Both the position numbers and the translations under genes were made by a program. The notes beneath the pieces were generated by a model that was given only the letters and a program-made list of their open reading frames with translations, had not been told where the DNA came from and searched no databases. This document shows, piece by piece, positions 1,278 through 42,660 of a DNA stretch of 64,000 nucleotides (its first letter is position 1; each line of letters opens with the position of its first letter). This stretch comes from a bacterium (GTDB lineage: Bacteria; Patescibacteriota; Minisyncoccia; Minisyncoccales; CG1-02-41-26). The stretch is from contig JAUSHZ010000007.1 of assembly GCA_030648255.1 (NCBI GenBank), forward strand, positions 24,404 through 88,403, written 5' to 3'.

Positions 1278-1489
1278 GTTAGAAGCTGTGTGAATTTTTA
1301 AATTTAATGATTTAAAAATTCATTACAGATTCTTACACCCCGTTAAGTGCGAGCGATGAGCGAGCTACTTAACTGGGGTTTGTTTGTATTCTTATCCACC
1401 CCAGTGAAGTAAAATTTGAGTACAAATTCACTTCACGGGGTTAAGCGATTGTATTTGTTCAGCCTCGGCTTCGGCTTCGCAAACAATCG
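1278..1489 (-). repeat. Intergenic modular repeat copy 1 (head A, middle I, tail 1)
   Basis: Starts right after the rpsD ATG (cat 1275-1277) and ends at the rpsK stop. The tail hairpin agcgattgt...acaatcgCTA supplies the TAG stop of rpsK. Confidence 0.9.
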
Positions 1490-1981
1490 CTAAACCCTTC
1501 TTGGTTTTCTTGGCCGACAGCCATTATGAGGAATTGGCGTTACGTCTCTTATTGATTCTATCTCCAAGCCTTGAGCGGCAATAGTTTTTAAAGCTGAATC
1601 TCTTCCGCCTCCAACCCCCTTAACAAAAACAGCAACTTCTTTAATTTTAAATTGTTCGCAAGCTAAAGCTACCGCTTGGGCAACTTTAGAGGCGGCAAAA
1701 GAAGTGCCTTTCTTTGTGCCCTTAAACCCAACATTTCCAGCAGACCTCCAAAATAAGACATTTCCTTTTTCATCAGCCAAGCTGACAATAGTATTGTTAT
1801 AGGTTGAAGAAATATAAATTCTGCCCTTTCTAAAAGAAGTTCTGGTAGAAGCAACATTCAAATCTTTTCCTAATTTCTTTTCAACTTTATCTGTTTCTTC
1901 AATAAGCTCTTTTTCTGTTTTTTGTATTACTCTTTTCTTTCCCATGTTAGTATTCGTTAATGAATGAAGTGGCTTTGCCAC
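1490..1981 (-). CDS. rpsK: 30S ribosomal protein S11 (N-terminal extension)
   Basis: 163 aa. The C-terminal half matches S11 (ISSTYNNTIVSLADEKGNVLFWRSAGNVGFKGTKKGT...). Confidence 0.9.
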   Translation of the reverse strand: MAKPLHSLTNTNMGKKRVIQKTEKELIEETDKVEKKLGKDLNVASTRTSFRKGRIYISSTYNNTIVSLADEKGNVLFWRSAGNVGFKGTKKGTSFAASKVAQAVALACEQFKIKEVAVFVKGVGGGRDSALKTIAAQGLEIESIRDVTPIPHNGCRPRKPRRV

Positions 1982-2136
1982 GAATGAATTTACGAAGACT
2001 TACACCCTGTGGAGTAGAAATTTGCTCTGCAAATTTCTGTTTTAAATTTTTAGTAAAAAATTTAAAACTACTCCACGGGGTAAATTCGTCGTAAGCTCTG
2101 GCTTCGCCTGCTGGCTTTCCCTCGCTAACGGCTCAT
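1982..2136 (-). repeat. Intergenic modular repeat copy 2 (head C, middle II, tail 2)
   Basis: Has the catgttagtattcgttaatgaatga... head and the ccctgtggagtag...ctactccacgggg middle. The tail ...cgctaacggctcaTTTA abuts the rpsM stop. Confidence 0.9.
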
Positions 2137-2526
2137 TTACTTTGGCCCTGGGGCTGTTTTTCTTCCAGAACTTACAGTTCTCTTAACATTGCCCCTTACA
2201 GTTCTTGAATTCTTTTTTGTTTTTTGCCCTCTAACAGTCAAGCCCTTTATGTGCCTGGTTCCTCGCCAACACTTAATCTCTTTTAATCTTTTAATATGGG
2301 CCACGTGCTCTCTTCTTAAGTCTCCTTCAATCTTATAACTTGCATCAATAACCTCTTTTATCTTCATTGCTTCTTGCTCGGTTAAATCTTTAGCTTTTTT
2401 CTGTGGCTCTATGTTGCATTGCTTTAAAATTCTTAAAGCCAATGGCCTGCCAATGCCAAAAACATAAGTCAAAGAAATGGCTATTTGTTTATTATCTGGA
2501 ATTGTGATGCTTGCTATTCGTGGCAT
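2137..2526 (-). CDS. rpsM: 30S ribosomal protein S13
   Basis: True start is MPRIASITIPD (cat 2524-2526). The ORF track extends 8 codons into the repeat via a TTG start (MKIHTASNM...). Confidence 0.9.
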   Translation of the reverse strand: MPRIASITIPDNKQIAISLTYVFGIGRPLALRILKQCNIEPQKKAKDLTEQEAMKIKEVIDASYKIEGDLRREHVAHIKRLKEIKCWRGTRHIKGLTVRGQKTKKNSRTVRGNVKRTVSSGRKTAPGPK

Positions 2527-2751
2527 GTTAGAAGCTGTGTGAATTTTCAAATTTAATGATTTGAAAATTCATTACAGATTCTTACACCCCGTTAAGTGCG
2601 AGCGATTAGCAAGCTACTTAACTGGGGTTTGTTTATATTTCTATCCACACCCCAGTGAAGTAGAATTTAATTTCATTAAATTCACTTCACGGGGTAAATT
2701 CCGCCAACCGCTCAAACTTCGGCTCATCGCCTCGTTTTCGCGGGGCGTCAT
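2527..2751 (-). repeat. Intergenic modular repeat copy 3 (head A, middle I variant, tail 3)
   Basis: Lies between the rpsM ATG and the rpmJ stop. The tail is ...ctcaaacttcggctcatcgcctcgttttcgcggggcgtcattta. Confidence 0.9.
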
Positions 2752-2868
2752 TTATGCGCCTTGGCGCTGTTTGTGTTTTGGAGTTTTGCAAATAACATAA
2801 ACCCTCCCCTTTCTTCTGGCGATTTTACAATCCTTACATAATTTTTTTACTGATGGTTTAACCTTCAT
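2752..2868 (-). CDS. rpmJ: 50S ribosomal protein L36 (missed by the 60-aa ORF cutoff)
   Basis: Reverse complement reads ATG AAG GTT AAA CCA TCA... and translates [38 protein letters not shown]. This is a classic L36 with C-x2-C...C-x4-H, 38 aa, in the expected infA-rpmJ-rpsM position. Confidence 0.9.
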
Positions 2869-3085
2869 GTTAGAAGCTGTGTGAATTTTTAAATTTAATG
2901 ATTTGAAAATTCATTACAGATTCTTACACCCCGTTAAGTGCGAGCGATTAGCAAGCTACTTAACTGGGGTTTGTTTGTATTTCTATCCACACCCCAGTGA
3001 AGTAGAATTTGAGTACAAATTCACTTCACGGGGTAAATTCCGCTTGCCAATCGCGCTTCGCCTGCTGGCTCGCACTCTTGGAGCG
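2869..3085 (-). repeat. Intergenic modular repeat copy 4 (head A, middle I, tail 4)
   Basis: Near-identical to copy 3 across the head and middle. The tail ...gcttcgcctgctggctcgcactcttggagcgTCAttta uses tca as the TGA stop of infA. Confidence 0.9.
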
Positions 3086-3304
3086 TCATTTAAGTCTATA
3101 AACTATTCTGCCTCTTTTATCATCAATAGAGGCCATTTCAACCAACACCTTATCGCCCAACAAAATTTTTATGCGATTAATTCTAAGCTTCCCGGCCAAA
3201 TGCGCCAAAACCTCGTTTCCATTTTCCAATTGAATTTTAAATAAAAGACTAGGCAAAGCCTCTACAACTTGGCCTCTTTCTCTTATTGTATTAATTTGTT
3301 TCAT
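3086..3304 (-). CDS. infA: Translation initiation factor IF-1
   Basis: 72 aa with S1-like IF-1 sequence (LENGNEVLAHLAGKLR...GDKVLVE...RGRIVYRLK). Confidence 0.9.
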   Translation of the reverse strand: MKQINTIRERGQVVEALPSLLFKIQLENGNEVLAHLAGKLRINRIKILLGDKVLVEMASIDDKRGRIVYRLK

Positions 3305-4738: not shown

Positions 4739-4866
4739 GTTAGAAATTCTTAATTGAGTGGCGAATTTATGAGCCGTGAAATTTAGAAGTTTTTAGTCCT
4801 CCGTAAATTCAAACTTCGCCTACTGACTCGTTTTCATTAACGGATTACTTATTCTACCACAAAAAT
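4739..4866 (-). repeat. Intergenic modular repeat copy 5 (short: head B + tail only)
   Basis: Sequence catgttagaaattcttaattgagtggcgaatttatgagccgtgaaatttagaag...cgttttcattaacggattacttatt. It lacks the middle module and sits between alaS and the membrane-protein gene. Confidence 0.8.
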
Positions 4867-12221: not shown

Positions 12222-12409
12222 GTTAGTAATTCTTAATTGAACGGCGAATTTATGAGCTGTGAAATTTAGAATTTCTTACACCCCGTGGAGTAGAAATTTG
12301 CTCTGCAAATTTCTATTTTAAATTTTTTACTAAAAATTTAAAATTACTCCACAGGGTAAATTCCGCTTGCCAATCGCGCTTCGATTACTCAGCACTCTTG
12401 GAGCGTCAT
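12222..12409 (-). repeat. Intergenic modular repeat copy 6 (head B, middle II, tail 4 variant)
   Basis: Sequence catgttagtaattcttaattgaacggcgaatttatgagctgtgaaatttagaa...ggagcgtcatTTA. The last tta is the rplO stop. Confidence 0.9.
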
Positions 12410-12841
12410 TTACTTTACTGTTCCTCCTGCTTTTTCTATTTTAACTTGAGCAGCTTTTGAAACCAAGCAATCCTCAATAGTAAGTGATTTAGTAAGTTCG
12501 CCATTTCCTAAAATTTTTACCAATGGAACTTTGCCTATAATTTTTCTAATTAATTTTTTATCAACTAAAACTTCCGGGGTAATTTTGTCTCCTTTTTCAA
12601 AATTCTTTTCTAAAACATTAAGATTTATAGAGGCTGTTTCTTCTCCTCTTAATTCCTGCCTGTATCCTCTTATTTTTGGATATCTTTTAATAATCTCTCT
12701 CATAAAGGGTTGCATTTTTCTCCCAGCCCTTGATTTTTGGCCTTTGCAACCCTTCCCACAGTAAGTTCCCTTCTTGCCTCCTCTGCCAATTCTTTTTCTA
12801 TCTTTTGTCTTATTATTTGGTTGTATTTCGTGAATTTGCAT
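12410..12841 (-). CDS. rplO: 50S ribosomal protein L15
   Basis: Starts MQIHEIQPN...RIGRGGKKG...GQKSRAG. Confidence 0.9.
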   Translation of the reverse strand: MQIHEIQPNNKTKDRKRIGRGGKKGTYCGKGCKGQKSRAGRKMQPFMREIIKRYPKIRGYRQELRGEETASINLNVLEKNFEKGDKITPEVLVDKKLIRKIIGKVPLVKILGNGELTKSLTIEDCLVSKAAQVKIEKAGGTVK

Positions 12842-13040
12842 GTTAGTAATTCTTAATTGAACTGCGAACGATTAGTGAGCTGTGAAATTTAGAAGTACTT
12901 ACACCCTGTGGAGTAGAAATTTGCTCTGCAAATTTCTGTTTTAAATTTTTAGTAAAAAATTTAAAACTACTCCACGGGGTAAATTCCGCCTTCCACTCAA
13001 ACTTCGGCTAATCGCCTCGTTTTCGTGGGGCGTCATTTAA
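12842..13040 (-). repeat. Intergenic modular repeat copy 7 (head B, middle II, tail 3); tail overlaps rpsE 3' end
   Basis: The tail ...cttcggctaatcgcctcgttttcgtggggcgtcattta is homologous to the copy-3 tail. Here it is read in frame as the last 11 codons of S5 ([10 protein letters not shown]). Confidence 0.85.
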
Positions 13041-13526: not shown

Positions 13527-13720
13527 GTTAGTAATTCTTAATTGAACGGCGAACGATTAGTGAGCTGTGAAGTTTAGAAGTACTTACACCCTGTGGAGTA
13601 GAAATTTGCTCTGCAAATTTCTGTTTTAAATTTTTTACTAAAAATTTAAAACTACTCCACGGGGTAAATTCCGCTTGCCAATCGTGCCTCACCTGCTGGC
13701 TCGCACTCTTGGAGCGTCAT
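13527..13720 (-). repeat. Intergenic modular repeat copy 8 (head B, middle II, tail 4)
   Basis: Runs from the rpsE ATG to the rplR stop (gagcgtcatTTAaaattg). Confidence 0.9.
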
Positions 13721-14065
13721 TTAAAATTGTAGCCCACCTTCTCTCGCTCCTTCAGCCAACGCTTTTATTCTACCATGATATTTAAAGCCTCCTCTATCAA
13801 AAACAACTTTTTTAATCTTTTTTTCTATTGCTAATTTAGCAATTTCCTTACCAACATTAAAAGCCTTTTCTAATTTTTTCAGTTTTTTCTCTTTTGAATC
13901 GTTTGCTGAAATAATAGTTTTGCCTTTTGTGTCGTCAATTATTTGAGCATAGATATGCTGGTTTGATTTAAATACGCAAAGCCGAGGCGCGGTTGGTGTG
14001 CCAATGACTTTTGCCCTGATTCGGCTGTGTCTTCTTGTTCTTTTTTGTTGTTTTGTCTGTTGCAT
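13721..14065 (-). CDS. rplR: 50S ribosomal protein L18
   Basis: 114 aa with L18 motifs [17 protein letters not shown]. Confidence 0.9.
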
Positions 14066-14258
14066 GTTAGTAGTCGTTAATGAATGAGTGGCGATTAGCC
14101 ACGAGTGAATTTACGAATTCTTACACCCTGTGGAGTAGAAATTTGCTCTGCAAATTTCTGTTTCAAATTTTTAGCAAAAAATTTGAAACTACACCACGGG
14201 GTAAGTCCTCCGTAAGCTCTGGCTTCGGCTAATCGCCTTGCCATCGCTAACGGATTAC
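14066..14258 (-). repeat. Intergenic modular repeat copy 9 (head C, middle II, tail 2)
   Basis: Sequence catgttagtagtcgttaatgaatgagtggcgattagccacgagtgaatttacgaa...cgctaacggattacTTA. Confidence 0.9.
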
Positions 14259-14819
14259 TTATTTTCCAGCTTTCTTGCCCTCTTTCTTGCGGACAATTTC
14301 ACCAAAATATCTAACGCCCTTGCCTTTGTATGGCTCTGGCTTTCTTAAAGCTCTTATTTTTGCTGCAAACTGGCCAACCTGTTGCTTGTCAAAACCAAAA
14401 ATATTTATAAATTGTTTTTCTATTTTTATAGACAAACCCCCTGGAATCTCCATAAAAATAGGGTGAGAAAAACCCAAGTCCAATCTTATTTTCGATTCTC
14501 CCTCCATAGCAGCCTTGTATCCAACTCCCCTAAGCTCTAATTTCTTTTCAAATCCAACTGAGACGCCATGAACATGGTTCAATAATAAAGCAGTGGTTAA
14601 CCCCCAGAGAGCAGGAATTTCTTTGCTCTCTTTTTCCTGTCTGCCGACAGGCAGGGCTGGCTTTACAACTAAAATATTACCTTGTTGTTCCACAACAATA
14701 CCAACAGGAATTTCCTGTTTTATCTCTCCCTTAGGCCCTTTAAATAAAACATTATCTTTTTCAAGAATAACTGTTACGCCTTGGGGTATTTCTATTGGTT
14801 TTTTTCCTATTCTTGACAT
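14259..14819 (-). CDS. rplF: 50S ribosomal protein L6
   Basis: True start MSRIGKKPIEIP (cat 14817-14819). The ORF track adds MKTHTISN from the repeat head. Confidence 0.9.
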   Translation of the reverse strand: MSRIGKKPIEIPQGVTVILEKDNVLFKGPKGEIKQEIPVGIVVEQQGNILVVKPALPVGRQEKESKEIPALWGLTTALLLNHVHGVSVGFEKKLELRGVGYKAAMEGESKIRLDLGFSHPIFMEIPGGLSIKIEKQFINIFGFDKQQVGQFAAKIRALRKPEPYKGKGVRYFGEIVRKKEGKKAGK

Positions 14820-15021
14820 GTTAGAAATTGTGTGAGTTTTCAAGCTATAATCTTTTTTATGGCTTGAAAACTCATTACAAGTTCTTACACCCTGTGGAGT
14901 AGAAATTTGCTCCGCAAATTTCTGTTTTAAATTTTTTACTAAAAATTTAAAACTACTCCACGGGGTAAGGTATCCGTAAGCTCGGGCTTCGCCTGCTGGC
15001 TCGCCCTCGCTAACGGCTACC
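14820..15021 (-). repeat. Intergenic modular repeat copy 10 (head D, middle II, tail 2)
   Basis: Sequence catgttagaaattgtgtgagttttcaagctataatcttttttatggcttgaaaactcattacaag...cgctaacggctaccTTA. Confidence 0.9.
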
Positions 15022-15411
15022 TTACCACACTTCCACCATTAATTCACCTCCGACTTTATCTTTTCTGGCTTGCTTATCTGTTAATAAACCATTGGTGGTT
15101 GAAACAATAGATAAGCCATAGCCACTTCTTACCTTTGAAATCTCGTCTGCTTTTTTATAAATTCTTTGCCCTGGCTTTGAAATCCTTTTAAACCCAGAGA
15201 CGGCTGGCATCTTTTCATTATATTTTAACTGTATTTTTATAATTTGAAACGGCTTTTTCCCTTTTTTCTTGCAATCCAAAATAAGCCCCTCTGCTTTTAA
15301 AATTTCAGCAATTGAGTATCTTAGTTTTGAAAAAGGAACATCGGTTGTTTTATGGAAAACAACTTGAGCGTTCCTTATTCTATTAAACATGTCTGTTATT
15401 GGATCGGTCAT
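15022..15411 (-). CDS. rpsH: 30S ribosomal protein S8
   Basis: True start MTDPITDMFNRIRNA. The start context here is ttctaaT-ATG rather than ttctaaC-ATG. Confidence 0.9.
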   Translation of the reverse strand: MTDPITDMFNRIRNAQVVFHKTTDVPFSKLRYSIAEILKAEGLILDCKKKGKKPFQIIKIQLKYNEKMPAVSGFKRISKPGQRIYKKADEISKVRSGYGLSIVSTTNGLLTDKQARKDKVGGELMVEVW

Positions 15412-15612
15412 ATTAGAAGTTGTGTGAGTTTTCAAGCTATAATTTTTTTTATGGCTTGAAAACTCATTACAAATTCTTATACCCCGTGGAGTAGAAATTT
15501 GCTCTGCAAATTTCTGTTTTAAATTTTTTACTAAAAATTTAAAACTACTCCACAGGGTAAGTCCTCCGTAAGCTCTGGCTCGGCTGTTGCCTCGCCATAG
15601 CTAACGGATTAC
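15412..15612 (-). repeat. Intergenic modular repeat copy 11 (head D, middle II, tail 2)
   Basis: Very close to copy 10. Ends ...agctaacggattacTTA at the rpsN stop. Confidence 0.9.
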
Positions 15613-15798
15613 TTACCAAGACGACTTCTTAATCCCGGGTATTTCTCCTTTACTTGCCATTTCCCTAAAACAAATTCTGCACAAACCAAAGTCCCTTATA
15701 AATCCCCTGTACCTTCCGCACTTAAAACATCGCCTCACTATTCTTGAAGAAAACTTTGGTTTTCGGTTTGATTGATTAATTAATGATTTTTTTGCCAT
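15613..15798 (-). CDS. rpsN: 30S ribosomal protein S14, Zn-ribbon type
   Basis: 61 aa with C-x2-C...C-x2-C. Confidence 0.9.
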
Positions 15799-16020
15799 GT
15801 TAGTGATTCTTAATTGAACGGCGAGCGATTAGCGAGCTGTGAAATTTAGAATGACTTACACCCCGTTAAGTGCGAGCGATTAGCGAGCTACTTAACTGGG
15901 GTTTCGTTGTATTCTTACCCCACCCCAGTGAAGTAGAATTTGAGTACAAATTCACTTCACGGGGTAAGGCTCTGCTACCGCTCAACCTTCGCCTTCGGCT
16001 CGGCTTCACGGGCAGAAGCC
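15799..16020 (-). repeat. Intergenic modular repeat copy 12 (head B, middle I, tail 3-like); tail overlaps rplE 3' end
   Basis: The tail ccgctcaaccttcgccttcggctcggcttcacgggcagaagcc is homologous to the tail-3 family. It encodes the L5 C-terminal residues ...ASAREAEPKAKVER*. Confidence 0.8.
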
Positions 16021-16634
16021 TTAAATGGAAACCCCAGCAATCTTAATAATGCAGCGCCTTCTTCCTTTGTTTTGGCTGTTGTTGAAATTGTTACTTCTAA
16101 TCCAAAAATGCCTTTCTCTTTTTCAACTTTCAATTCAGGAAATGGAACATACTCTTTAAATCCAACTGTAATATCTCCTTGGCTTGTCATAGATTTCTCT
16201 TCAACGCCCCTAAAGTCTCTAGACCTTGGCAAAACAACCCAAATCAACTTCTCTAAAAAATCATACATTCTTTTCTTTCTTAAGGTGCAGCTGGCTCCAA
16301 CCGCCATACCTTCTCTTAGCTTGAAAGCAGCAATTGATTTTTTTGCTTTATTTAGAGATGGTTTTTGCCCGGTAATAGCGGCTATTGATTGAGCAATATA
16401 TTCTTCCGCTTTTTCTCTCTCACTGGCGCTTTTTCCAATAACCATTTTGCCAAAACCGCAATTAACAACAATCTTCTTTATTTTTGGCACAGCCATAACA
16501 GAACTATACCCGAATTTCTTCGTCATTTCAGGAATAACTATTTTATTGTATTGCTCTTGTAATTTCATATTTTTCATGAAGCTGTCGAAGCTGTTGAAAC
16601 CGAGCTTCTGGAAGCCCTTGAAGCTCGGTTTCAA
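15975..16634 (-). CDS. rplE: 50S ribosomal protein L5 (with N- and C-terminal extensions)
   Basis: 219 aa. The core is NYSSVMAVPKIKKIVVNCGFG. Confidence 0.85.
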   Translation of the reverse strand: MKPSFKGFQKLGFNSFDSFMKNMKLQEQYNKIVIPEMTKKFGYSSVMAVPKIKKIVVNCGFGKMVIGKSASEREKAEEYIAQSIAAITGQKPSLNKAKKSIAAFKLREGMAVGASCTLRKKRMYDFLEKLIWVVLPRSRDFRGVEEKSMTSQGDITVGFKEYVPFPELKVEKEKGIFGLEVTISTTAKTKEEGAALLRLLGFPFKASAREAEPKAKVER

Positions 16635-16655
16635 CAGCTTCAGGCTCCATAGCTT

Positions 16656-16961
16656 TTAAATATCAGCTTTGCATTTCTTGCAAATTCTAACTTTATTTTC
16701 TCCTTCTACCTTATAGCCAATTCTTGTGGGTTTATTGCACTTAGGACATAAAGCCTGCGCTTTGGAGGCATTCATTGGAAAAGAAATTTCCACAATTTGC
16801 CCTTTTTCTCCTTGTTTTTTTGGCTTTTTATGCGTCTTTTTTATATTAACTCCTTCAACCAAAATCATTTCCTTAGATGGAAAGCTTTTTAAAACCTTGG
16901 CTTTCTTGCCTTTATCCTTGCCAGCGATTATTAAAACATTGTCTCCTTTTTTGATTCGCAT
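16656..16961 (-). CDS. rplX: 50S ribosomal protein L24
   Basis: True start MRIKKGDNVLIIAGKDKGK (KOW domain). Cat is at 16959-16961. Confidence 0.9.
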   Translation of the reverse strand: MRIKKGDNVLIIAGKDKGKKAKVLKSFPSKEMILVEGVNIKKTHKKPKKQGEKGQIVEISFPMNASKAQALCPKCNKPTRIGYKVEGENKVRICKKCKADI

Positions 16962-17177
16962 GTTAGAAATTGTGTGAGTTTTCAAGCTATAATCTTTTTT
17001 ATGGCTTGAAAACTCATTACAAGTTCTTACACCCTGTTAAGTGCGAGCGATGAGCGAGCTACTTAACTGGGGTTTGTTTATATTATTCTCATACCCCAGT
17101 GAAGTAGAATTTGATTACAAATTCACTTCACGGGGTTAAGCGATTGTAATGCTCGGCTATCGCCTCGCAGACAATCG
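16962..17177 (-). repeat. Intergenic modular repeat copy 13 (head D, middle I, tail 1)
   Basis: The tail hairpin agcgattgt...acaatcgCTA supplies the TAG stop of rplN. This matches copy 1 and its use at rpsK. Confidence 0.9.
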
Positions 17178-17546
17178 CTAAACAACATCTTTAGCCATGG
17201 TTATTATGGCATCAAATCCTTTTTCTTTTAATTCTCGAGGAACCGGCCCTAAAATTCTATTTCCTTTAGGCTGTTTCTGATCATTTAAAATACAGCAAGC
17301 ATTGTCATCAAATCGCAAATAGGAACCGTCTTTTCTTCTAAACGGACTCTTTTGCCTTACAATAACGGCCTTAACAACCTGATGTTCCTTAACATCGCGC
17401 CTTGGCTCTGCTTTTTTAACCGCTGCAACAATTATGTCGCCAATTCTTGCATATTTCTTTCTTGTGCCTCCAGGCACCCCAAAACACTGAACTATCTTAG
17501 CTCCAGTATTATCTGCCACATTTAACATTGTTCTTAACTGAATCAT
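17178..17546 (-). CDS. rplN: 50S ribosomal protein L14
   Basis: 122 aa starting MIQLRTMLNVADNTGAK. Confidence 0.9.
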   Translation of the reverse strand: MIQLRTMLNVADNTGAKIVQCFGVPGGTRKKYARIGDIIVAAVKKAEPRRDVKEHQVVKAVIVRQKSPFRRKDGSYLRFDDNACCILNDQKQPKGNRILGPVPRELKEKGFDAIITMAKDVV

Positions 17547-17967: not shown

Positions 17968-18375
17968 CTATTTTTTTACAAATTTAACTTTAATTGGCAA
18001 TTTATCTGAGGCCTTGCCAAACGCCTCAACAGCAATCTTTTCATCCACTCCATCAATTTCAAATATCACTCTACCAGGTTTTATCGGAAAAACATAATGG
18101 TCAACAGCCCCCTTGCCTCCACCCATTCCAACTTCTCCGCCTTTTTGCGTAATTGGTTTTTGGGGGAATATCCTAATCCATAGCTTACCCTTTCTTTTCA
18201 TTGCTTTTGTAATAGCTTTTCTAGCTGATTCCATTTGGTTGGCTGTAATCCATTTTGTTCCCATTGATTTCAATCCAAAAGAACCATAGGAAACTTCTGT
18301 TCCTCTTGTATCATTTCCTTTGCTTGTGCCCTTATGCCATTTCCTATGTTTCATTTTTCTTGGTTGTGTCAACAT
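17968..18375 (-). CDS. rplP: 50S ribosomal protein L16
   Basis: True start MLTQPRKMKHRKWHKG (cat 18373-18375). Confidence 0.9.
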   Translation of the reverse strand: MLTQPRKMKHRKWHKGTSKGNDTRGTEVSYGSFGLKSMGTKWITANQMESARKAITKAMKRKGKLWIRIFPQKPITQKGGEVGMGGGKGAVDHYVFPIKPGRVIFEIDGVDEKIAVEAFGKASDKLPIKVKFVKK

Positions 18376-18566
18376 GTTAGAAGCTGTGTGAATTTTCAAA
18401 TTTAATGATTTGAAAATTCATTACAGATTCTTACACCCCGTGGAGTAGAAATTTGCTCTGCAAATTTCTGTTTTAAATTTTTAGTAAAAAATTTAAAACT
18501 ACTCCACAGGGTAAATTCCGCTTGCCAATCACGCTCGCCTGCTGGCTCGCGCTCTTGGAGCGTCAT
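18376..18566 (-). repeat. Intergenic modular repeat copy 14 (head A, middle II, tail 4)
   Basis: Runs from the rplP ATG to the rpsC stop (ggagcgtcatTTAattaaag). It carries a 3-nt deletion relative to copies 4 and 8 in the tail. Confidence 0.9.
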
Positions 18567-19226
18567 TTAATTAAAGCGTTCTCCCTTATACATCCAAACC
18601 TTAACGCCAATAACCCCATAAGTGCAGTGTGCCTCGCATGAGCCATATTCAACTATGGCTCTTATTGTTTGAAGCGGAAGTCGCCCATCTTTTAACCATT
18701 CTCTTCTGGAAATTTCAACTCCATTTAACCTACCTGATACCTCAACCTTCACGCCTTTTATTTCTTTTTGCTCAGCTGTTTTGCTTATTGCCATTTTCAA
18801 AACTCTTCTAAACGGCACTTGCTTTTCGATTTGGCCAGCCATCCATTGAGCTGTTAAGCTGGCTGAAAGCCATGGGTTTCTTATTTCAATAATTTCTATT
18901 TTAATGCTGTTTTTATCTGTTTTTATCTTCCCCTTTACTTTTGATATTGCTTTTTCAATTCCCATTTTCAAATCCTCAACTCCTTTGCCCCCCCTGCCGA
19001 TAATCAAAGCGGGTCTGGAAGTTTTAATAATAATTTTTAAGGCAGCGGATGTTCTCTCTATCTCTACTTCCTGAATAATACCCGCGGGTAGCTTCTTAGT
19101 GATAAACTGCCTAATTATAAAATCCTCCTCTAAGTAAACAGGAAAATTGTTCTTATAAAAGCCTCTTGAAAGCCAGTCTTTCATTTCTCTTATCTTAAAA
19201 GATTTTGGGTTGACTTTATGGCTCAT
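18567..19226 (-). CDS. rpsC: 30S ribosomal protein S3
   Basis: 219 aa with KH and S3-C domains. Confidence 0.9.
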   Translation of the reverse strand: MSHKVNPKSFKIREMKDWLSRGFYKNNFPVYLEEDFIIRQFITKKLPAGIIQEVEIERTSAALKIIIKTSRPALIIGRGGKGVEDLKMGIEKAISKVKGKIKTDKNSIKIEIIEIRNPWLSASLTAQWMAGQIEKQVPFRRVLKMAISKTAEQKEIKGVKVEVSGRLNGVEISRREWLKDGRLPLQTIRAIVEYGSCEAHCTYGVIGVKVWMYKGERFN

Positions 19227-19576
19227 ACTTTTGATTTATCTTGTTTAAAAATATCTAAATTTAAAGTAATATTAGAAGTTTTCTTTTCTATTCTACAAGC
19301 CCTGCCCCTAGCTCTGGCCCTCCATCTTTTAAGGGTTCTGCCCTCATCAACTTTAATTAAGGAAATAAACAAATCTTTTTCTTCTAATTTAAAATTGTTT
19401 TTAGCGTTGGCCACTGCTGAATCCAAAAGCTTTTTTAAAGGCAAGGCTCCTTTTTTAATGCAAAATCCTAAAGATGCTTGGGCTTTCCCAGCAGATTTTC
19501 CTCTAACCATATCAGCCACCAAGCGAACTTTTCTGGGTGATATTCTTAAATTGTTTAATTTTGCTATAACTTGCAT
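19223..19576 (-). CDS. rplV: 50S ribosomal protein L22
   Basis: True start MQVIAKLNNLRISPRK (cat 19574-19576). Confidence 0.9.
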   Translation of the reverse strand: MQVIAKLNNLRISPRKVRLVADMVRGKSAGKAQASLGFCIKKGALPLKKLLDSAVANAKNNFKLEEKDLFISLIKVDEGRTLKRWRARARGRACRIEKKTSNITLNLDIFKQDKSKV

Positions 19577-19776
19577 GTTAGAAATTGTGTGAGTTTTCAA
19601 GCTATATTTCCTTATGGCTTGAAAACTCATTACAAGTTCTTACACCCCGTGGAGTAGAAATTTGCTCCGCAAATTTCTGTTTTAAATTTTTAGTAAAAAA
19701 TTTAAAACTACTCCACAGGGTAAATTCCGCTTGCCAATCGCGCTTCGCCTGCTGGCTCGCGCTCTTGGAGCGTCAT
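19577..19776 (-). repeat. Intergenic modular repeat copy 15 (head D, middle II, tail 4)
   Basis: Ends ...gctcttggagcgtcatTTA at the rpsS stop. Confidence 0.9.
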
Positions 19777-20103
19777 TTATTTCTTTACTGGTACTGGTGC
19801 TTTAGGTTGGGTTTGAGTTTGCACTTTTGATTCTTGCTCTCTTTGCATTTTTCCGCCATGCCTGCCAAACTTCGTGGTTGGGGAAAATTCTCCTAATTTA
19901 TGGCCAACCATATCTTCTGAAACATAAACGGGAATATGCTCTTTTCCATTATGGACTCCAAAAGTAAAGCCAACCATTTCTGGTGTAACAGAACACTCGC
20001 GAGACCATGTCTTAATAACTTTTTTCTCGCCAGCTTTCTGGTTGATGACTTTTTTTATTAATCTTTCGTCCACAAAAGGACCCTTTTTTAGTGATCGTGG
20101 CAT
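19777..20103 (-). CDS. rpsS: 30S ribosomal protein S19
   Basis: Starts [12 protein letters not shown]..., a classic S19. Confidence 0.9.
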
Positions 20104-22641: not shown

Positions 22642-22941
22642 GTTAGAAGCTGTGTGAATTTTTAAATTTAATGATTTAAAAATTCATTACAGATTCTTAC
22701 ACCCTGTGAAGTAAAATTTGAGTACAAATTTTAATTTTAAATTTTTTACTAAAAATTTAAAATTACTTCACGGGGTTAATAATCCGTAAGCTCAAGCTTC
22801 GCCTGCTGGCTCGCTCTCGCTAACGAATTATTAAAAACACGAGGCATTAACTCCCCGCATTTTTGTTAAAAACTCAAGGGTTAAATTCTTCCCACTTTCA
22901 AGGGTTAAACTAATTAAGTTTTACCTTGAACTCTATATTAA
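22642..22941 (-). repeat. Intergenic modular repeat copy 16 (head A, chimeric middle, tail 2 + ~110-bp unique extension)
   Basis: The middle is a hybrid: ccctgtgaagtaaaatttgagtacaaatt (the M-I loop) fused to ...ttttttactaaaaatttaaaattacttcacgggg (the M-II 3' half). The tail is followed by caagggttaaa(t/c)t direct repeats before the rpsJ stop. Confidence 0.8.
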
Positions 22942-27550: not shown

Positions 27551-27814
27551 GTTAGTAATCGTTAATGAATGAGTGGCGATTAGCCACGAGTGAATTTACG
27601 AGGACTTACACCCTGTGAAGTAAGATTTGAGGTCTCTTCCAAAAAGTGTATTCTCTTAAACTTTTAACTATTTTTCTCTCGCATCAATTGTTAATAATCG
27701 TACCCTCAAATCTTAATTTTAAATTTTTTACTAAAAATTTAAAATTACTTCACGGGGTAAATTCCGCCAACCGCTCAAACTTCGGCTCATCGCCTCGTTT
27801 TTGCTGGGCGTCAT
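27551..27814 (-). repeat. Intergenic modular repeat copy 17 (head C, middle with ~75-bp nested insertion, tail 3)
   Basis: The apical loop of the middle hairpin is replaced by the stem-loop gatttgaggtctc...gtaccctcaaatc. The tail ...ctcgtttttgctgggcgtcatTTA supplies the TAA stop of rpsL. Confidence 0.85.
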
Positions 27815-28231
27815 TTAACTTTTAACTCTTTTTGCTCCGTATTTAGATCTTCCATTTTTTCTGCCAGCCACCCCTGTGGTATCTAAATGTCCTCTAACAA
27901 TATGATATCTCACGCCGGGTAAATCTTTAACCCTTCCCCCTCTCACCAAAACCATTGAGTGCTCTTGTAGGTTGTGGCCTTCCCCGCCAATATAAGCAGA
28001 AACTTCTTTGCCATTTGATAGCTTAACCCTGGCTACTTTTCGTAAAGCCGAGTTTGGTTTTTTTGGAGTAACTGTGAAAACCTTAGTGCAAATTCCTCTC
28101 TTAAATGGAGACGCGTAGTCCTGTGGCCTGTTTTTTAAAACATTAAAACCATAAGTCAAAGCTCTCATCTTGATTGTTTTTTTCACTGGCTTTCTTGGCT
28201 TTTTAATTAATTGATGAATTGTTGGACACAT
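27815..28231 (-). CDS. rpsL: 30S ribosomal protein S12
   Basis: 138 aa with [11 protein letters not shown], a classic S12. Confidence 0.95.
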
Positions 28232-28366: not shown

Positions 28367-29317
28367 TTACTTACACTGCTGGGGTTTCACAGAGGTGCAG
28401 GTCAATGTTCCGTCAAGTGCTGTGCACCAAGTAATTCCTGCTTTGTCTGTATCTCCAATTCCCAAACAGCCAGTCAACGCTCCACTTCCTATCATAACTG
28501 TTGTCGAAGCAGAAGACGACACCTCCAAATTATACGCCGGCGTTGTCGTCCCAATCCCGATATTACCCTTCAATATTGTTTTCGTAATACTAGTATTTCC
28601 TAAAGTTACAGAATTGCTGCCATTGCCTATAGCACTCGCTCCTATTACTATTTCATTGGTATTCCCGTCTGCTCCAGCCATTGCGTTATAACCCTCATAA
28701 ACAGAGTTACTGGAAGTTGTATTGGCGGTAACACCATCGGCAATATAAACACCAGCCTTCGTGCCATTGGCGGTGTTTTGATAACCAGTATTATAGTAGA
28801 GAGCCTGCATACCGTTAGCGGTATTTTGATAACCAGTAGTGTTTGAGAAAAGAGCCTGCATACCGTTAGCGGTATTGTAATCGCCAGCAGTATTAGAATA
28901 AAGGGCATACACGCCATTAGCTGTATTTGTATATCCTGTAGTGTTAGAGTAGAGAGATCTATAACCAACAGCAGTATTATAACCCGCTTCATTTGTACTG
29001 GCTGTTGAACTTGCCATCCCCGCTTGATAGCCAACAAAAGTATTGTATAAGGATACATCATAATGACCTGCCTGGTAGCCAATATTAGTTTTAAAGCCAA
29101 TATTATTAAAATCAATTAGATCAGTAACCGCTATACCAAGAGAGGTTAGATATGTAGTAGTAGTTGTAGCTAATGTGCTAGTACTAAAAACATCTAGAGC
29201 TCCCCCAATAGAAACATTATTACCAATTGTGGTAACAGCTTGGGCGACTATAACTACGCAAAAAACCGTTGTTATGACGCTCACTACTACAGTAAAAATT
29301 TGCTTTTTATTATTCAT
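28367..29317 (-). CDS. Secreted repeat protein with T-rich N-region and ~19-aa tandem repeats (GYQNTANGMQALYSNT...)
   Basis: N-terminal signal/TM segment. Five or more degenerate tandem repeats are visible at both the DNA (about 57-60-nt period) and protein level. The C-terminus is Cys-containing. Confidence 0.6.
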   Translation of the reverse strand: MNNKKQIFTVVVSVITTVFCVVIVAQAVTTIGNNVSIGGALDVFSTSTLATTTTTYLTSLGIAVTDLIDFNNIGFKTNIGYQAGHYDVSLYNTFVGYQAGMASSTASTNEAGYNTAVGYRSLYSNTTGYTNTANGVYALYSNTAGDYNTANGMQALFSNTTGYQNTANGMQALYYNTGYQNTANGTKAGVYIADGVTANTTSSNSVYEGYNAMAGADGNTNEIVIGASAIGNGSNSVTLGNTSITKTILKGNIGIGTTTPAYNLEVSSSASTTVMIGSGALTGCLGIGDTDKAGITWCTALDGTLTCTSVKPQQCK

Positions 29318-40017: not shown

Positions 40018-42660
40018 TTAGCTCATTTTGCTCAAGCGAGCGAAGAGAAAGAAAATTAAAGTGAATATTATGGCCATGGCAAACGGGGCTACACTAGAAA
40101 GCCAGTTGCGTTTGTTTGGCTTAAAGCCACGCAAAAATAATGAATTAGAAACCACCGAAACCGAGCTCAAAGCCATAGCCAGGCCTGCCAATTCGGGTTT
40201 TAAAACAATGCCCAGCCCCACCAAAACTCGAGCCGCAATTGGAATGCCCATTACATTATAAAACAAAGCAAAAAACATATTTTGTTTTATTTTGCTCATT
40301 GTTTCTTTGCTTAACTGTATGGCAGTTAACACATCTCGCAAATCATCTTTGATTATCACAATGCCCCCTGCCTCCATTGCCACGTCTGTGCCACTGCCCA
40401 TAGCAATGCCCAAATCCGCTTGGGCTAAAGCTGGAGCGTCATTTATGCCATCTCCCACCATTGCCACTTTAATACCTGTATCTTGCAATTTTTTAATTTC
40501 ATTGGCTTTATCTTGAGGCAGAACTTCAGCTAAAACATTTTTTATGCCAGCCTGTTTAGCGATAGCTTGGGCTGTTCTTTGATTGTCCCCTGTTATCATA
40601 TAAACGGCTATGCCTCTTTTTTGTAATAAAGAAACTGTTTCTGCTGATGTTTCTTTAATAGTGTCAGCCACCGCCACCAATCCCAAAATTTCCTGGCTTG
40701 AAGCCAAGATCATTACGGTCTTTCCTTCTTCTTCTAAGCGTTTCATCTTTCTTTCGATGCCTTCCACTTTAAAGCCAGCGATATCCATAATTAACTTACG
40801 ATTGCCCAAATAATATTTATTAGCATTGATAACTCCCTCAACACCATGCCCGGGAATTGCTTTAAAATTACTTGCTTCTTTTATAGTAATTGCCTCTTCT
40901 CCTGCGTATTTAACAATGGCTTCAGCTAATGGATGTTCGGATAATTTTTCCAAGCTTGCTGCTATAGCGATAACTTCGTCTTCGTCAATTGAGGTAACTC
41001 CAACAATATCTGTAACCTCTGGCTTGCCTTTAGTTAAAGTGCCTGTTTTATCAAAGACAATCGCCCTTACTTTACAAGCCGCTTCCAATGGCTCCCCTCC
41101 TTTAATTAAAATACCGCTTTCAGCGCCCTTGCCAGTTCCTACCATAATAGCGGTTGGCGTGGCTAATCCCAAAGCACAAGGGCAGGCAATAACAATTACC
41201 GAAGTAAATGCCATTAAAGCAAAACTCAAGCTAGAACCTAATATAAAAAACCAAATTAAAAATGTTAAAACAGATATTCCCAAAACAATAGGCACAAACT
41301 TAGCGGAAATTTTATCAGCCACCGCCTGAATAGGGGCTTTAGAGCCTTGGGCGTCTTCAATTAAGCGGATAATTTGCGCTAACGCAGTTTCTTTGCCAAC
41401 TTTAGTGGCTTTAAATTCAAAACTGCCATTTTTGTTAATAGTGGCGCCAATAACCATATCCCCAATATTTTTTTCTTTGGGAATGCTCTCCCCTGTTAGC
41501 ATTGACTCGTCCACCGATGACTGGCCTTTAACAATAACACCGTCAACTGGAATTTTTTCACCCGGCCGAACCACCACAATATCCCCTGCCATTACTTGGT
41601 CCACTGGAATATCAACTGTTGAACTGCCACGAGTCACTCGAGCTGTTTTTGGCTGCAAGCCAACCAGCTTTTTAATGGCTTGAGAAGTTCTGCCTTTGGC
41701 TTTTGCCTCAAGAAACTTTCCTAAAGAAACAAAAGTAATTAAAAAAGCGGCTGTTTCAAAATAGAGTTCTGGTATTTTGGCGCCAGCCAATCCGATTACA
41801 GAATTATTTACAACAATATAATTAATAAACTGCCACAAGCTATAGAAAAAAGCGGTGCTGGTGCCAATGGCAATCAAACTATCCATATTAAAGGTTTTCA
41901 TTTTCAGCCCGCTCCAAAACCCTTTGTAAAATCCCTTGCCAATAATAAACTGGACAGGCAAAGTTAAAATTAAAGAAATAATGCCAATGTAGGGTAAAAA
42001 AGCAACGCCTCCCGGTAAGAACTTAAAAAAGTCCAAGAACATAAAGTAAAGCATTGGGGCAGACAACACTGCTCCCCAGATAAATTTCCTCCACAATGAT
42101 TTTATATGCTTTTCTTTGTTAGCGCTTTCTTCCTCTGTGTTTGCCTCCTCGTGTACAGATGCTTTATAGCCAGCTTTATTAACAGCAGAAATTAAATTTT
42201 CAACTGAAGAAACCGAGCTATCAAAAATAACCCGGGCTTTTTCCGCGGCAAAGTTAACCGAAGCGGTTTTAACCCCAGGCGTTTTTTTAATTGCTCTTTC
42301 AATAATACCTGCGCACGAAGCGCAATGCATTCCGCCTAAAATTAAGCTAATATGTTCTTCTCCTTTGCTTTTTGTTGAAGAGGAATCTGGCAATGAGTCG
42401 TGATGGGGCATTTGAGGTGGCTGCAGAACAACCCCAGAGCTAATATTTTGGGTTGATTTAACATCCCCAGAAAAAATACTGAACAACTGGCTAATTTTTG
42501 AAGAGTGAATTAAATTTTCAACAATTTTATCAATGTCTTCTCGGCCTTGGGGCACCTCAAACTCGCCTTTTTTATAATGCTTAACCTTACCTTCAAAATT
42601 TGGAATGTCATTTTTAGAAGAAAAGCTACCTTCTGCTTCCACCATTGACTCCACCTTCAT
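40018..42660 (-). CDS. copA: Copper-translocating P1B-type ATPase
   Basis: HMA domain [25 protein letters not shown]. The likely start MKVESM (cat 42658-42660) avoids overlap with the upstream copZ. The longer six-frame ORF reaches 42765. Confidence 0.9.

Follow-up and report, generated by a model that had tools for sequence, protein, structure and literature searches.

A GIY-YIG-associated palindromic element, probably mobile, fills stop-to-start junctions of a Patescibacteria ribosomal-protein superoperon

Introduction

The REP/BIME elements of Escherichia coli, the BOX elements of pneumococci, and the Correia elements of Neisseria are mosaic intergenic repeats that lie at variable distances from genes. 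Translational coupling occurs at overlapping or adjacent stop and start codons, such as UAAUG, AUGA, and UAAAUG. Each Seg protein has a domain for DNA binding and homes to a single cognate site. The seg genes of T-even phages are presented in a review as free-standing GIY-YIG homing endonuclease genes (PMC2988022), and YhbQ and YazA are members of the structure-selective nuclease Slx1 family (PMC7017083). Here, we analyzed a stretch of 64,000 nucleotides from a Patescibacteria genome (contig JAUSHZ010000007.1; this whole stretch is called the window below), the minus strand of which carries the str-S10-spc-alpha ribosomal-protein superoperon, from rpsL (28231) to rpsD (642), with gene identities confirmed with Pfam. 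Within this 28-kb ribosomal stretch, one repeat family fills 17 stop-to-start spacers, all 17 on the gene (minus) strand.

A preliminary description of these repeats had seen in them a stop-spacer-start cassette serving translation. Its observations proved largely right, but its translational interpretation is largely unsupported. We consider it likely that the family is a non-autonomous, palindromic mobile element of Patescibacteria (Parcubacteria), similar to miniature inverted-repeat transposable elements (MITEs) and associated with GIY-YIG nuclease genes, seated between native stop and start codons; most likely it is selfish and not a translation signal. Like the REP/BIME, BOX, and Correia repeats, it is made of modular palindromes arranged in mosaics, lies between genes within operons, is co-transcribed, and folds stably, but it abuts the stop and the start to the nucleotide, and no sequence similarity to these repeats was found.

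Results

The 17 copies range from about 113 to 270 nt, are typically some 200 bases long, and amount together to about 3.4 kb, while the remaining 36 kb of the window contains neither a copy nor a fragment. Their conserved ends are stop-AUGACGCUCC ... CUAAC-AUG in the mRNA sense, and all 17 same-strand copies indeed fill stop-to-start spacers. The copy separating infA from rpmJ (2869..3092, minus strand, as are all copies below) stops directly at the rpmJ ATG (2866-2868) and comprises an M1 hairpin that begins with TAAATGA (3034-3092), an M2 double-hairpin module (2928-3033), and an M3 hairpin running from GTAAG to CTAAC (2869-2927). The infA stop lies where it had been placed, as TCA at 3086-3088 (TGA on the gene strand), the plus strand at 3080-3092 being GGAGCGTCATTTA. 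Every copy had been said to end in (c/t)taac and the downstream ATG; all 17 do reach the ATG, 16 of them as CTAAC, but the copy between rpsN and rpsH (15412..15615) ends in CTAAT. The string CTAACATG is found 16 times in the window, where 1.21 ± 1.09 occurrences are expected; all 16 lie at gene starts of the minus strand.

At the opposite end, nine copies had been assigned to one 5' type, a count that has to be lowered, since only eight elements have TAAATGACGC(C/T)C, even when the variant ending in ...GCCCA of the rpsL>rpsG copy is included. TAAATGACGCYCC occurs eight times in the window (0.01 expected), one of the eight (40433-40445) not being an element: this exact 13-nt match, TAAATGACGCTCC, lies in a P-type ATPase gene, where it encodes the INDAP of GDGINDAP, and was dismissed as a coincidence. 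The two other tail types were recovered as described, with the copies rpsK>rpsD (1278..1492) and rplN>rplX (16962..17180) beginning with TAG-CGATTGT (Tail-1) and the Tail-2 copies with TAA-GTAATCCGTTAGC or TAA-GGTAGCCGTTAGC. The TAG of rpsK is native, as it is also found in the related locus L108.

TAA stands at both ends of the element (TAA-... and ...C-TAA-C-ATG), and the 5' TAA is integral to it, since copies without an upstream gene (loci L127 and L106) still start with TAAGTAATCC. In most copies this TAA coincides with the native stop position, and the working stop is supplied by the element in only a few, namely, the TGA of infA and the TAGs of rpsE and rplE. In the rpsE>rplO copy (12842..13039), which reaches 32 nt into the rpsE frame, the element TAA is out of frame, and rpsE reads through TAAATGA to end at a TAG (13008-13010) 30 nt inside the element. 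In the rplE>rpsN copy (15799..16023), the TAA with which M1 begins is out of frame and lies 8 nt ahead of the native rplE stop; the rplE frame continues for about 15 codons within this element, which thus encodes the rplE C terminus. Between rpsJ and rplC, the element is confined to 22642..22834, downstream of a conserved native spacer of 107 nt (22835-22941) that is also present in element-free relatives. The proposed self-contained cassette is accurate insofar as the element spans the exact stop-to-start interval and brings its own TAA, but the start codons and most stop codons are native.

The native origin of these codons emerged from a comparison with relatives. A scan of GTDB genomes with the S8 protein identified an unclassified metagenome-assembled genome, L026, whose S8 is 98% identical and whose coding DNA is 77 to 88% identical to that of the window; the next relatives were Staskawicz-, Nealson-, and Paceibacteria, by which the organism is assigned to Patescibacteria/Parcubacteria. 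L026 is fully syntenic and element-free, and its junctions consist of TAA, 1 to 19 nt, and ATG (for example, TAA-tt-ATG, TAA-attt-ATG, and TAA-atat-ATG) or of overlapping genes. The start codons have the same positions in L026 and in the window, as do the stops of rpsS, rpsC, rpsN, rpsH, rplF, rplR, and rplN (TAA in L026 and TAG in the window for the last), and the stop positions of rpmJ, rpsM, and rpsK match those of L108. Since the starts and 10 of the 16 comparable stops keep their positions in element-free relatives, the flanking codons are native and the element is wedged between them. Between a TAA near the gene end and the next ATG, the element stands in place of the short native spacer: the native 1 to 4 nt are absent at filled junctions, and 11 native nt have given way to the rplE copy.

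A metagenome scan with an element-derived pattern returned 39 loci with dozens of further copies, some of which show the 3' variants CTAACAC-ATG, CTATC-ATG, and TTAAC-ATG. Filled junctions differ among these loci. In L137, an element occupies rpsQ>rplN, a junction without one in the window; L135 has elements at tuf>rpsJ, rpsJ>rplC, rplW>rplB, and rplE>rpsN; L126 has one at rpsN>rpsH; and L108 has two, at infA>rpmJ and rpsM>rpsK. Many metagenomic copies lie upstream of lexA-like, nusA, nusB, rpsP, ssb, response-regulator, and secretion genes, and copies before nonribosomal genes are in the sense orientation, with an ATG that opens a real open reading frame (ORF), in every case. Because close relatives differ in insertion sites, a conserved regulatory device is disfavored. 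Elements also get lost, given that some "empty" sites retain 3' remnants, for example attaagaattactaaaATG / attaagaattactaaa-ATG in L026. The M2 modules of the window copies share a mean identity of 95%, above that of orthologous genes in relatives, indicating recent spread or homogenization.

Read as mRNA, each copy consists of three abutting hairpins, M1-M2-M3, essentially without single-stranded linkers. M1 (about 59 nt) has the form UAAAU GA CGCU CCAA GA GYGC GA GCC-loop-GGC GAA GCRC GA UUGG CA AGCG GA AUUUA, with tandem G.A loops in its stem and a basal helix formed by UAAnn/nnUUA pairing, which includes the stop triplet. The AUGA that follows the stop contributes two pairs of this basal helix and one strand of a tandem G.A loop. 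Among 47 window and metagenome copies that were folded, all 37 M1 hairpins closing at the M1/M2 boundary have the stop-containing basal helix. In an alignment of 25 M1 sequences (A1), 96.2% of the cells are paired and 11 of 14 pairs are changed on both sides; none of 500 shuffles reached the observed values, and sliding the partner abolished the signal. M2 is a long inverted repeat, ACCCYGTGRAGTA...TACTYCACRGGGT, enclosing two small hairpins or a second repeat pair. In all of 49 distinct copies, GUAAGnn/nnCUAAC forms the closing helix of M3 (58 to 69 nt), with an invariant A.A mismatch at position 3 and covariation (A-U/U-A) at positions 6 and 7. Three copies with ATAAG end in CTAAT, a double change that turns a G-C pair at the foot of M3 into A-U, and the rpsN>rpsH copy, the only one in the window ending in CTAAT-ATG, shows this change of GTAAG to ATAAG in step. 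The conservation of UAAAUGA and of CUAAC is thus structural, since both are strands of hairpin basal helices.

Other readings of these motifs were rejected. CUAAC as a signal pairing with rRNA or tRNA was discarded, as its partner GUAAG pairs and covaries with it, and for the same reason the likeness of GUAAGU...UACUAAC to eukaryotic splice and branch motifs is a coincidence. On inspection only, the GA/GAA and GA/GA loops of M1 do not have the 3-nt bulge of a kink-turn. A group I or group II intron or a self-cleaving ribozyme was ruled out, the core motifs being absent and the end sequences unsuitable; at the gathering score, Rfam returned no match to the element among ribozyme, intron, riboswitch, and leader families, and at E <= 1 it returned only generic subthreshold hairpin (miRNA-precursor) matches on both strands. 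Further palindromes are nested within M2 (L114, L124, and L130) or within the M1 loop (L106), e.g., cccgagggcagacctcc…ggaggtctgccctcagg, which suggests that new hairpins insert into existing hairpins.

The structural role of the termini bears directly on their proposed role in translation, according to which ribosomes, having terminated at UAA, would start again at the AUG beside it or pass across the fold to CUAAC-AUG, in replacement of Shine-Dalgarno (SD) coupling. UAAAUG is a classic coupling context, and, as in coupled genes, an AUG directly follows the stop at the 5' end of 9 of the 17 window copies. All copies are sense oriented and abut the ATG exactly, the remnants of decayed copies keep the 3' arm beside the ATG, and the organism does without SD sequences: SD-like cores precede only 2 of the 82 window ORFs, against a background of 8%, and are likewise missing from ordinary junctions. 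The scarcity of SD cores across all window ORFs makes their absence a trait of the organism and not of the element, and the organism appears to start translation without SD pairing (the 16S rRNA gene is absent from the 64-kb window).

Nevertheless, the AUG that had been regarded as a ribosome re-capture site or upstream ORF (uORF) start is base paired within the M1 stem, and many family members have AUA, GUA, or GGU in its place. It does open short, nonconserved frames, as had been noted, of 3, 6, 22, 22, 22, 27, 31, 36, and 54 codons, but they terminate 27 to 180 nt ahead of the next start. This variation of the AUG and of the length and end of the uORFs makes a conserved re-initiation relay or regulatory uORF unlikely. 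Furthermore, element-free relatives express the same genes across junctions of 1 to 4 nt, insertion sites are not conserved, and M3 pairs better as the antisense strand than as mRNA. Unlike in coupled genes, the AUG after the stop is thus paired, dispensable in the family, and without a conserved ORF, and some 200 nt separate it from the real downstream start. Overall, we regard a translational device as very improbable. As the three hairpins close end to end, stop and next start would be adjacent in the folded RNA, and this predicted adjacency may help the insert to be tolerated or even favor coupling; re-initiation is possible as a side effect of the elements.

The two strands of the element are not equivalent in each module. 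Whole elements fold equally well on both strands, with 34 versus 46 G.U pairs, about 97% Watson-Crick pairs, and a mean difference of 0.2 kcal/mol. M1, however, favors the sense strand (21 versus 3 G.U pairs; -24.2 versus -17.4 kcal/mol; 14 G.U versus 3 A.C cells in alignment A1), whereas M3, in both of its classes, favors the antisense strand (5 versus 51 G.U pairs; -14.5 versus -20.1 kcal/mol). When reverse complemented, M3 matches M1 in sequence and architecture, the ends of the element being inverted copies of each other. From the opposite biases of M1 and M3 it follows that the element is a DNA palindrome of two-fold symmetry, with each end hairpin "good" in the direction that runs inward from its own end. 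Such an asymmetry is the expected signature of recognition at the DNA level, not of selection on the mRNA.

Terminator-like sites (a hairpin followed by a T-run) number 27 in the window, versus 7.3 expected, and nearly all of them lie on the antisense strand of the elements; the sense strand of the elements has none. The strict sense orientation can thus be explained, since an antisense insertion would probably be lethal in an operon. A mobile promoter or leaderless start was rejected, as promoter-like sites are not enriched (24 versus 17.9 ± 3.8) and the sense strand ahead of the ATG has no conserved one.

The absence of terminators from the sense strand would also suit a domesticated RNA punctuation, in which the hairpins, as sites for RNase III or other processing and as 3' stabilizers, split the ribosomal transcript into separately tuned units, in the manner of Correia elements, REP elements, or the intergenic sites of phage T7. 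Copies folded whole were indeed far more stable than shuffles (z = -6.1 and -9.3), and occupancy is enriched in ribosomal operons, with 17 of 37 co-directional junctions filled in the ribosomal region versus 0 of 30 elsewhere (p = 6e-6). Independent palindrome families also occupy the same junctions in other Parcubacteria. Junctions of at least 100 nt make up 13 of 18 in L075, 8 of 12 in L064, and 8 of 14 in L057, many others of the 47 related loci being tight, and in these three loci, as in L040, L044, and L049, most ribosomal-protein junctions are filled by unrelated AT-rich palindromes of about 75 to 170 nt, some sharing the pre-start motif ttttagcgaagcRcWY-ATG. Colonization of junctions by hairpin elements thus seems to recur in Parcubacteria ribosomal operons. 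Against a punctuation role, close relatives manage without elements, unrelated genes are also preceded by the same element, and wobble pairs show no sense bias over the whole element and an antisense bias in M3. We therefore find this explanation unlikely. L026 has a small GC-rich palindromic repeat of its own (ccccacccctc … gaggagtgggg) at rpsJ>rplC, at rplR>rpsE, and upstream of alaS.

A coding relative of the element was found among the metagenomic loci. In the L106/L109/L111/L121, L113/L115, and L145 copies, an 89-amino-acid (aa) ORF lies within M2, surrounded by the same M1 and M3. Its sole domain is GIY-YIG (Pfam, E = 2.9e-15, residues 3-72), its nearest solved structures are the UPF0213 proteins BH0048 and EF2693, and its close homologues number at least 3300, the majority from Parcubacteria and some from Bacteroidota. 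All inspected cassettes are co-oriented with their neighbors and bracketed by the same inverted repeat, and L145 has two of them in tandem. As the central inverted repeat encloses the GIY-YIG gene in some metagenomic copies, those in the window have the appearance of derivatives without the ORF; by sequence inspection, the ORF-less M2 is derivable from the coding form by deletions between the direct repeats AAATTT and CTCAAAT. In the window, tblastn detected no intact GIY-YIG gene and only one remnant, the degenerate 3' end of the ORF retained in M2 of the rpsL>rpsG copy (27551..27817). A homologous cassette with the same inverted repeat (gene 2501-2761 in the Bacteroidota contigs L152-L154) splits a 23S_rRNA_IVP (four-helix-bundle) gene in frame, indicating that GIY-YIG cassettes move outside Patescibacteria too.

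Another enzyme might nonetheless move the element, such as a Y1 (HUH) transposase of the IS200/IS605 type or a REP-associated RAYT acting on single-stranded hairpins, the GIY-YIG cassette then being a passenger that homed into the repeat. Subterminal imperfect hairpins, the apparent lack of a terminal duplication, insertion beside a short motif (TAA), and strict strand orientation would all fit. Outer hairpins also exist independently of the cassette, as in the short copy between alaS and a 459-aa gene (4739..4851), an "empty pad" with M1 and M3 and no M2, and M2-type cassettes without M1 and M3 exist in Bacteroidota. On the other hand, no Y1 (HUH) or RAYT transposase was found among the ORFs of the 64-kb window or beside the inspected cassettes, whole genomes not having been searched; no transposase-like domain occurs among the window ORFs, and the 40 ORFs at 28 to 64 kb contain neither a transposase nor a nuclease domain. 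In addition, simple insertion 3' of a target motif does not fit the disappearance of the native spacer that follows TAA, and mutually inverted ends are atypical of IS200/IS605. We thus hold the involvement of another enzyme to be quite unlikely.

The remaining copies follow the same pattern. The rpsM>rpsK copy (1946..2139) starts with TAAATGAGCCGTTAGC and has an M3 of class c, and the rpmJ>rpsM copy (2527..2754) starts with TAAATGACGCCCC. The genes flanking the rplO>secY copy (12222..12412) overlap by 17 nt in element-free L026. The copy rplR>rpsE (13527..13723) corresponds to an empty site reading TAA acat ATG in L137, the copy rpsS>rplV (19577..19779) to TAA tt ATG in L026, and the rplN>rplX copy to TAA attt ATG in both L026 and L137, which is element-free at this junction. 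The copies rplF>rplR (14066..14261) and rpsH>rplF (14820..15024) start with TAAGTAATCCGTTAGC and TAAGGTAGCCGTTAGC, respectively, and a further copy separates rpsC from rplP (18376..18569).

Two spacers of the operon contain hairpins of their own. The native spacer after rpsJ (22835-22941) ends in a terminator-like hairpin and T-run (cggggag…ctcgtgttttt). This spacer is conserved in both L135 and the element-free L026, and it may act as an attenuator or leader on what lies downstream of rpsJ. The rplX>rplE spacer (16578-16655) is a separate, near-perfect hairpin of 78 nt, GAAGCTGTTGAAACCGAGCTTC ... GAAGCTCGGTTTCAACAGCTTC, unrelated to the 17 elements, and measures 4 nt in L026 and L137.

Gene calling is affected by the elements, since callers extend ORFs into them. 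The longest ORFs at 14259-14843, 15022-15435, 16656-16985, 17968-18399, and 19223-19630 run upstream into elements with TTG or ATG starts and the sequence LKTHT(I/T/A)SNM…, which is probably why exact look-ups of the true rplF and rplR proteins found no record. Elsewhere in the window, an Rfam DUF3800-V RNA match (48983-49080, plus strand; 41.9 bits, above the gathering score of 37.4) is next to a DUF3800-domain gene (49116-49784, minus strand), and a 316-aa ORF without a Pfam match (28367-29317) contains four tandem 51-nt repeats (28739-28939).

Viral contigs scanned with GGGTGTAAG..CTAACATG gave 25 matches, all of them in unrelated coding sequence. The literature that we searched on intergenic repeats of the candidate phyla radiation (CPR), on MITEs of Patescibacteria, and on mobility of GIY-YIG/COG2827/UPF0213 proteins contained no description of these elements, although one may exist elsewhere, and the papers searched described no mobility role for the UPF0213/YhbQ-YazA/Slx1 family.

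Discussion

Our favored explanation is a palindromic element that is probably mobile and that spreads as DNA. In this scheme, a process recognizing the hairpin ends would spread copies, possibly with a structure-selective GIY-YIG nuclease acting in trans, and TAA and ATG would then anchor break repair or gene conversion. Only sense copies that keep the upstream stop and the downstream start would survive, as antisense copies would put terminator-like sites into the operon. The juxtaposition of stop and AUG and the CUAAC-AUG context would then be by-products of hairpin closure and of the places where insertion is tolerated. The data would be better accommodated by repair, gene conversion, or a core-type exchange with TAA and ATG as anchors than by simple cut-and-paste transposition.

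Several points weigh against this explanation. Neither a clean target-site duplication nor an excision allele was found, and we infer the mode by which the TAA..ATG interval is replaced. Junction density alone fails to explain the skew of occupancy toward the ribosomal region, which could reflect function, and the unrelated palindromes at the same junctions hint that hairpins there are useful or specially tolerated. The constancy of the 3' end among metagenome copies is partly due to ascertainment, as the search pattern contained CATGTTAG. The asymmetry of M3 stems partly from one recurrent wobble position, in copies that are related and not independent. Finally, the 89-aa nuclease has no DNA-binding domain, and its role in mobility is guilt by association.

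A more specific proposal, which we put forward tentatively and consider doubtful, is that of an undescribed class of mobile elements, in which a minimal UPF0213 (YhbQ/Slx1-like) GIY-YIG nuclease would recognize hairpin or cruciform ends, and not a sequence, and would target the TAA..ATG joint between genes; the end-to-end hairpins would keep stop and start adjacent in the folded mRNA, hence the tolerance of 17 insertions even by the ribosomal-protein superoperon of a streamlined bacterium without SD sequences. If this were true, a large protein family of unknown function would gain a role, and bacteria would gain a DNA-level counterpart of "harmless" intron-like insertions.

These results take away a tempting but unsupported translational story, since the stop-AUG and CUAAC-AUG contexts are the bases of hairpins in a palindrome that is probably mobile. 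They also indicate that, even in a very small CPR genome, the operon with the highest conservation and expression can be interspersed with many pieces of mobile DNA, with consequences for ribosomal-protein phylogenies, binning, and ideas on genome streamlining. The link between the elements and the abundant GIY-YIG/UPF0213 family of unknown function provides a testable hypothesis for those nucleases. Given the unrelated palindromes at the same junctions, the question is also raised of how translation and transcript processing proceed across such inserts without SD sequences.

Among known systems, IS200/IS605-derived elements resemble the one described here in their hairpin ends, the apparent lack of a duplication, and strand-specific insertion beside a short motif, and IStrons (PMC4227781) resemble it in the principle of an insertion rendered harmless to the host gene. 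In contrast to both, no Y1 transposase or TnpB and no intron ribozyme were found here, and the ends are mutually inverted. With the phage seg genes, the coding form shares a GIY-YIG gene that lies between conserved genes, is co-oriented with them, owes its expression to read-through, and varies in presence from one related genome to another, but here the protein is an 89-aa nuclease core alone, the gene is wrapped as a cassette in hairpins, and ORF-less copies sit at many nonhomologous junctions. Compared to UPF0213/YhbQ-YazA/Slx1 proteins, what differs is the setting, as the genes here are placed in inverted-repeat cassettes at gene junctions. MITEs are similar in that the elements are short, noncoding, and multicopy, have inverted-repeat ends that are shared with ORF-bearing relatives, and occupy polymorphic sites. 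Unlike MITEs, however, they are without a clear target-site duplication, their related ORF encodes a minimal GIY-YIG nuclease and no known transposase, and they replace the exact stop-to-start interval, always in the sense orientation.

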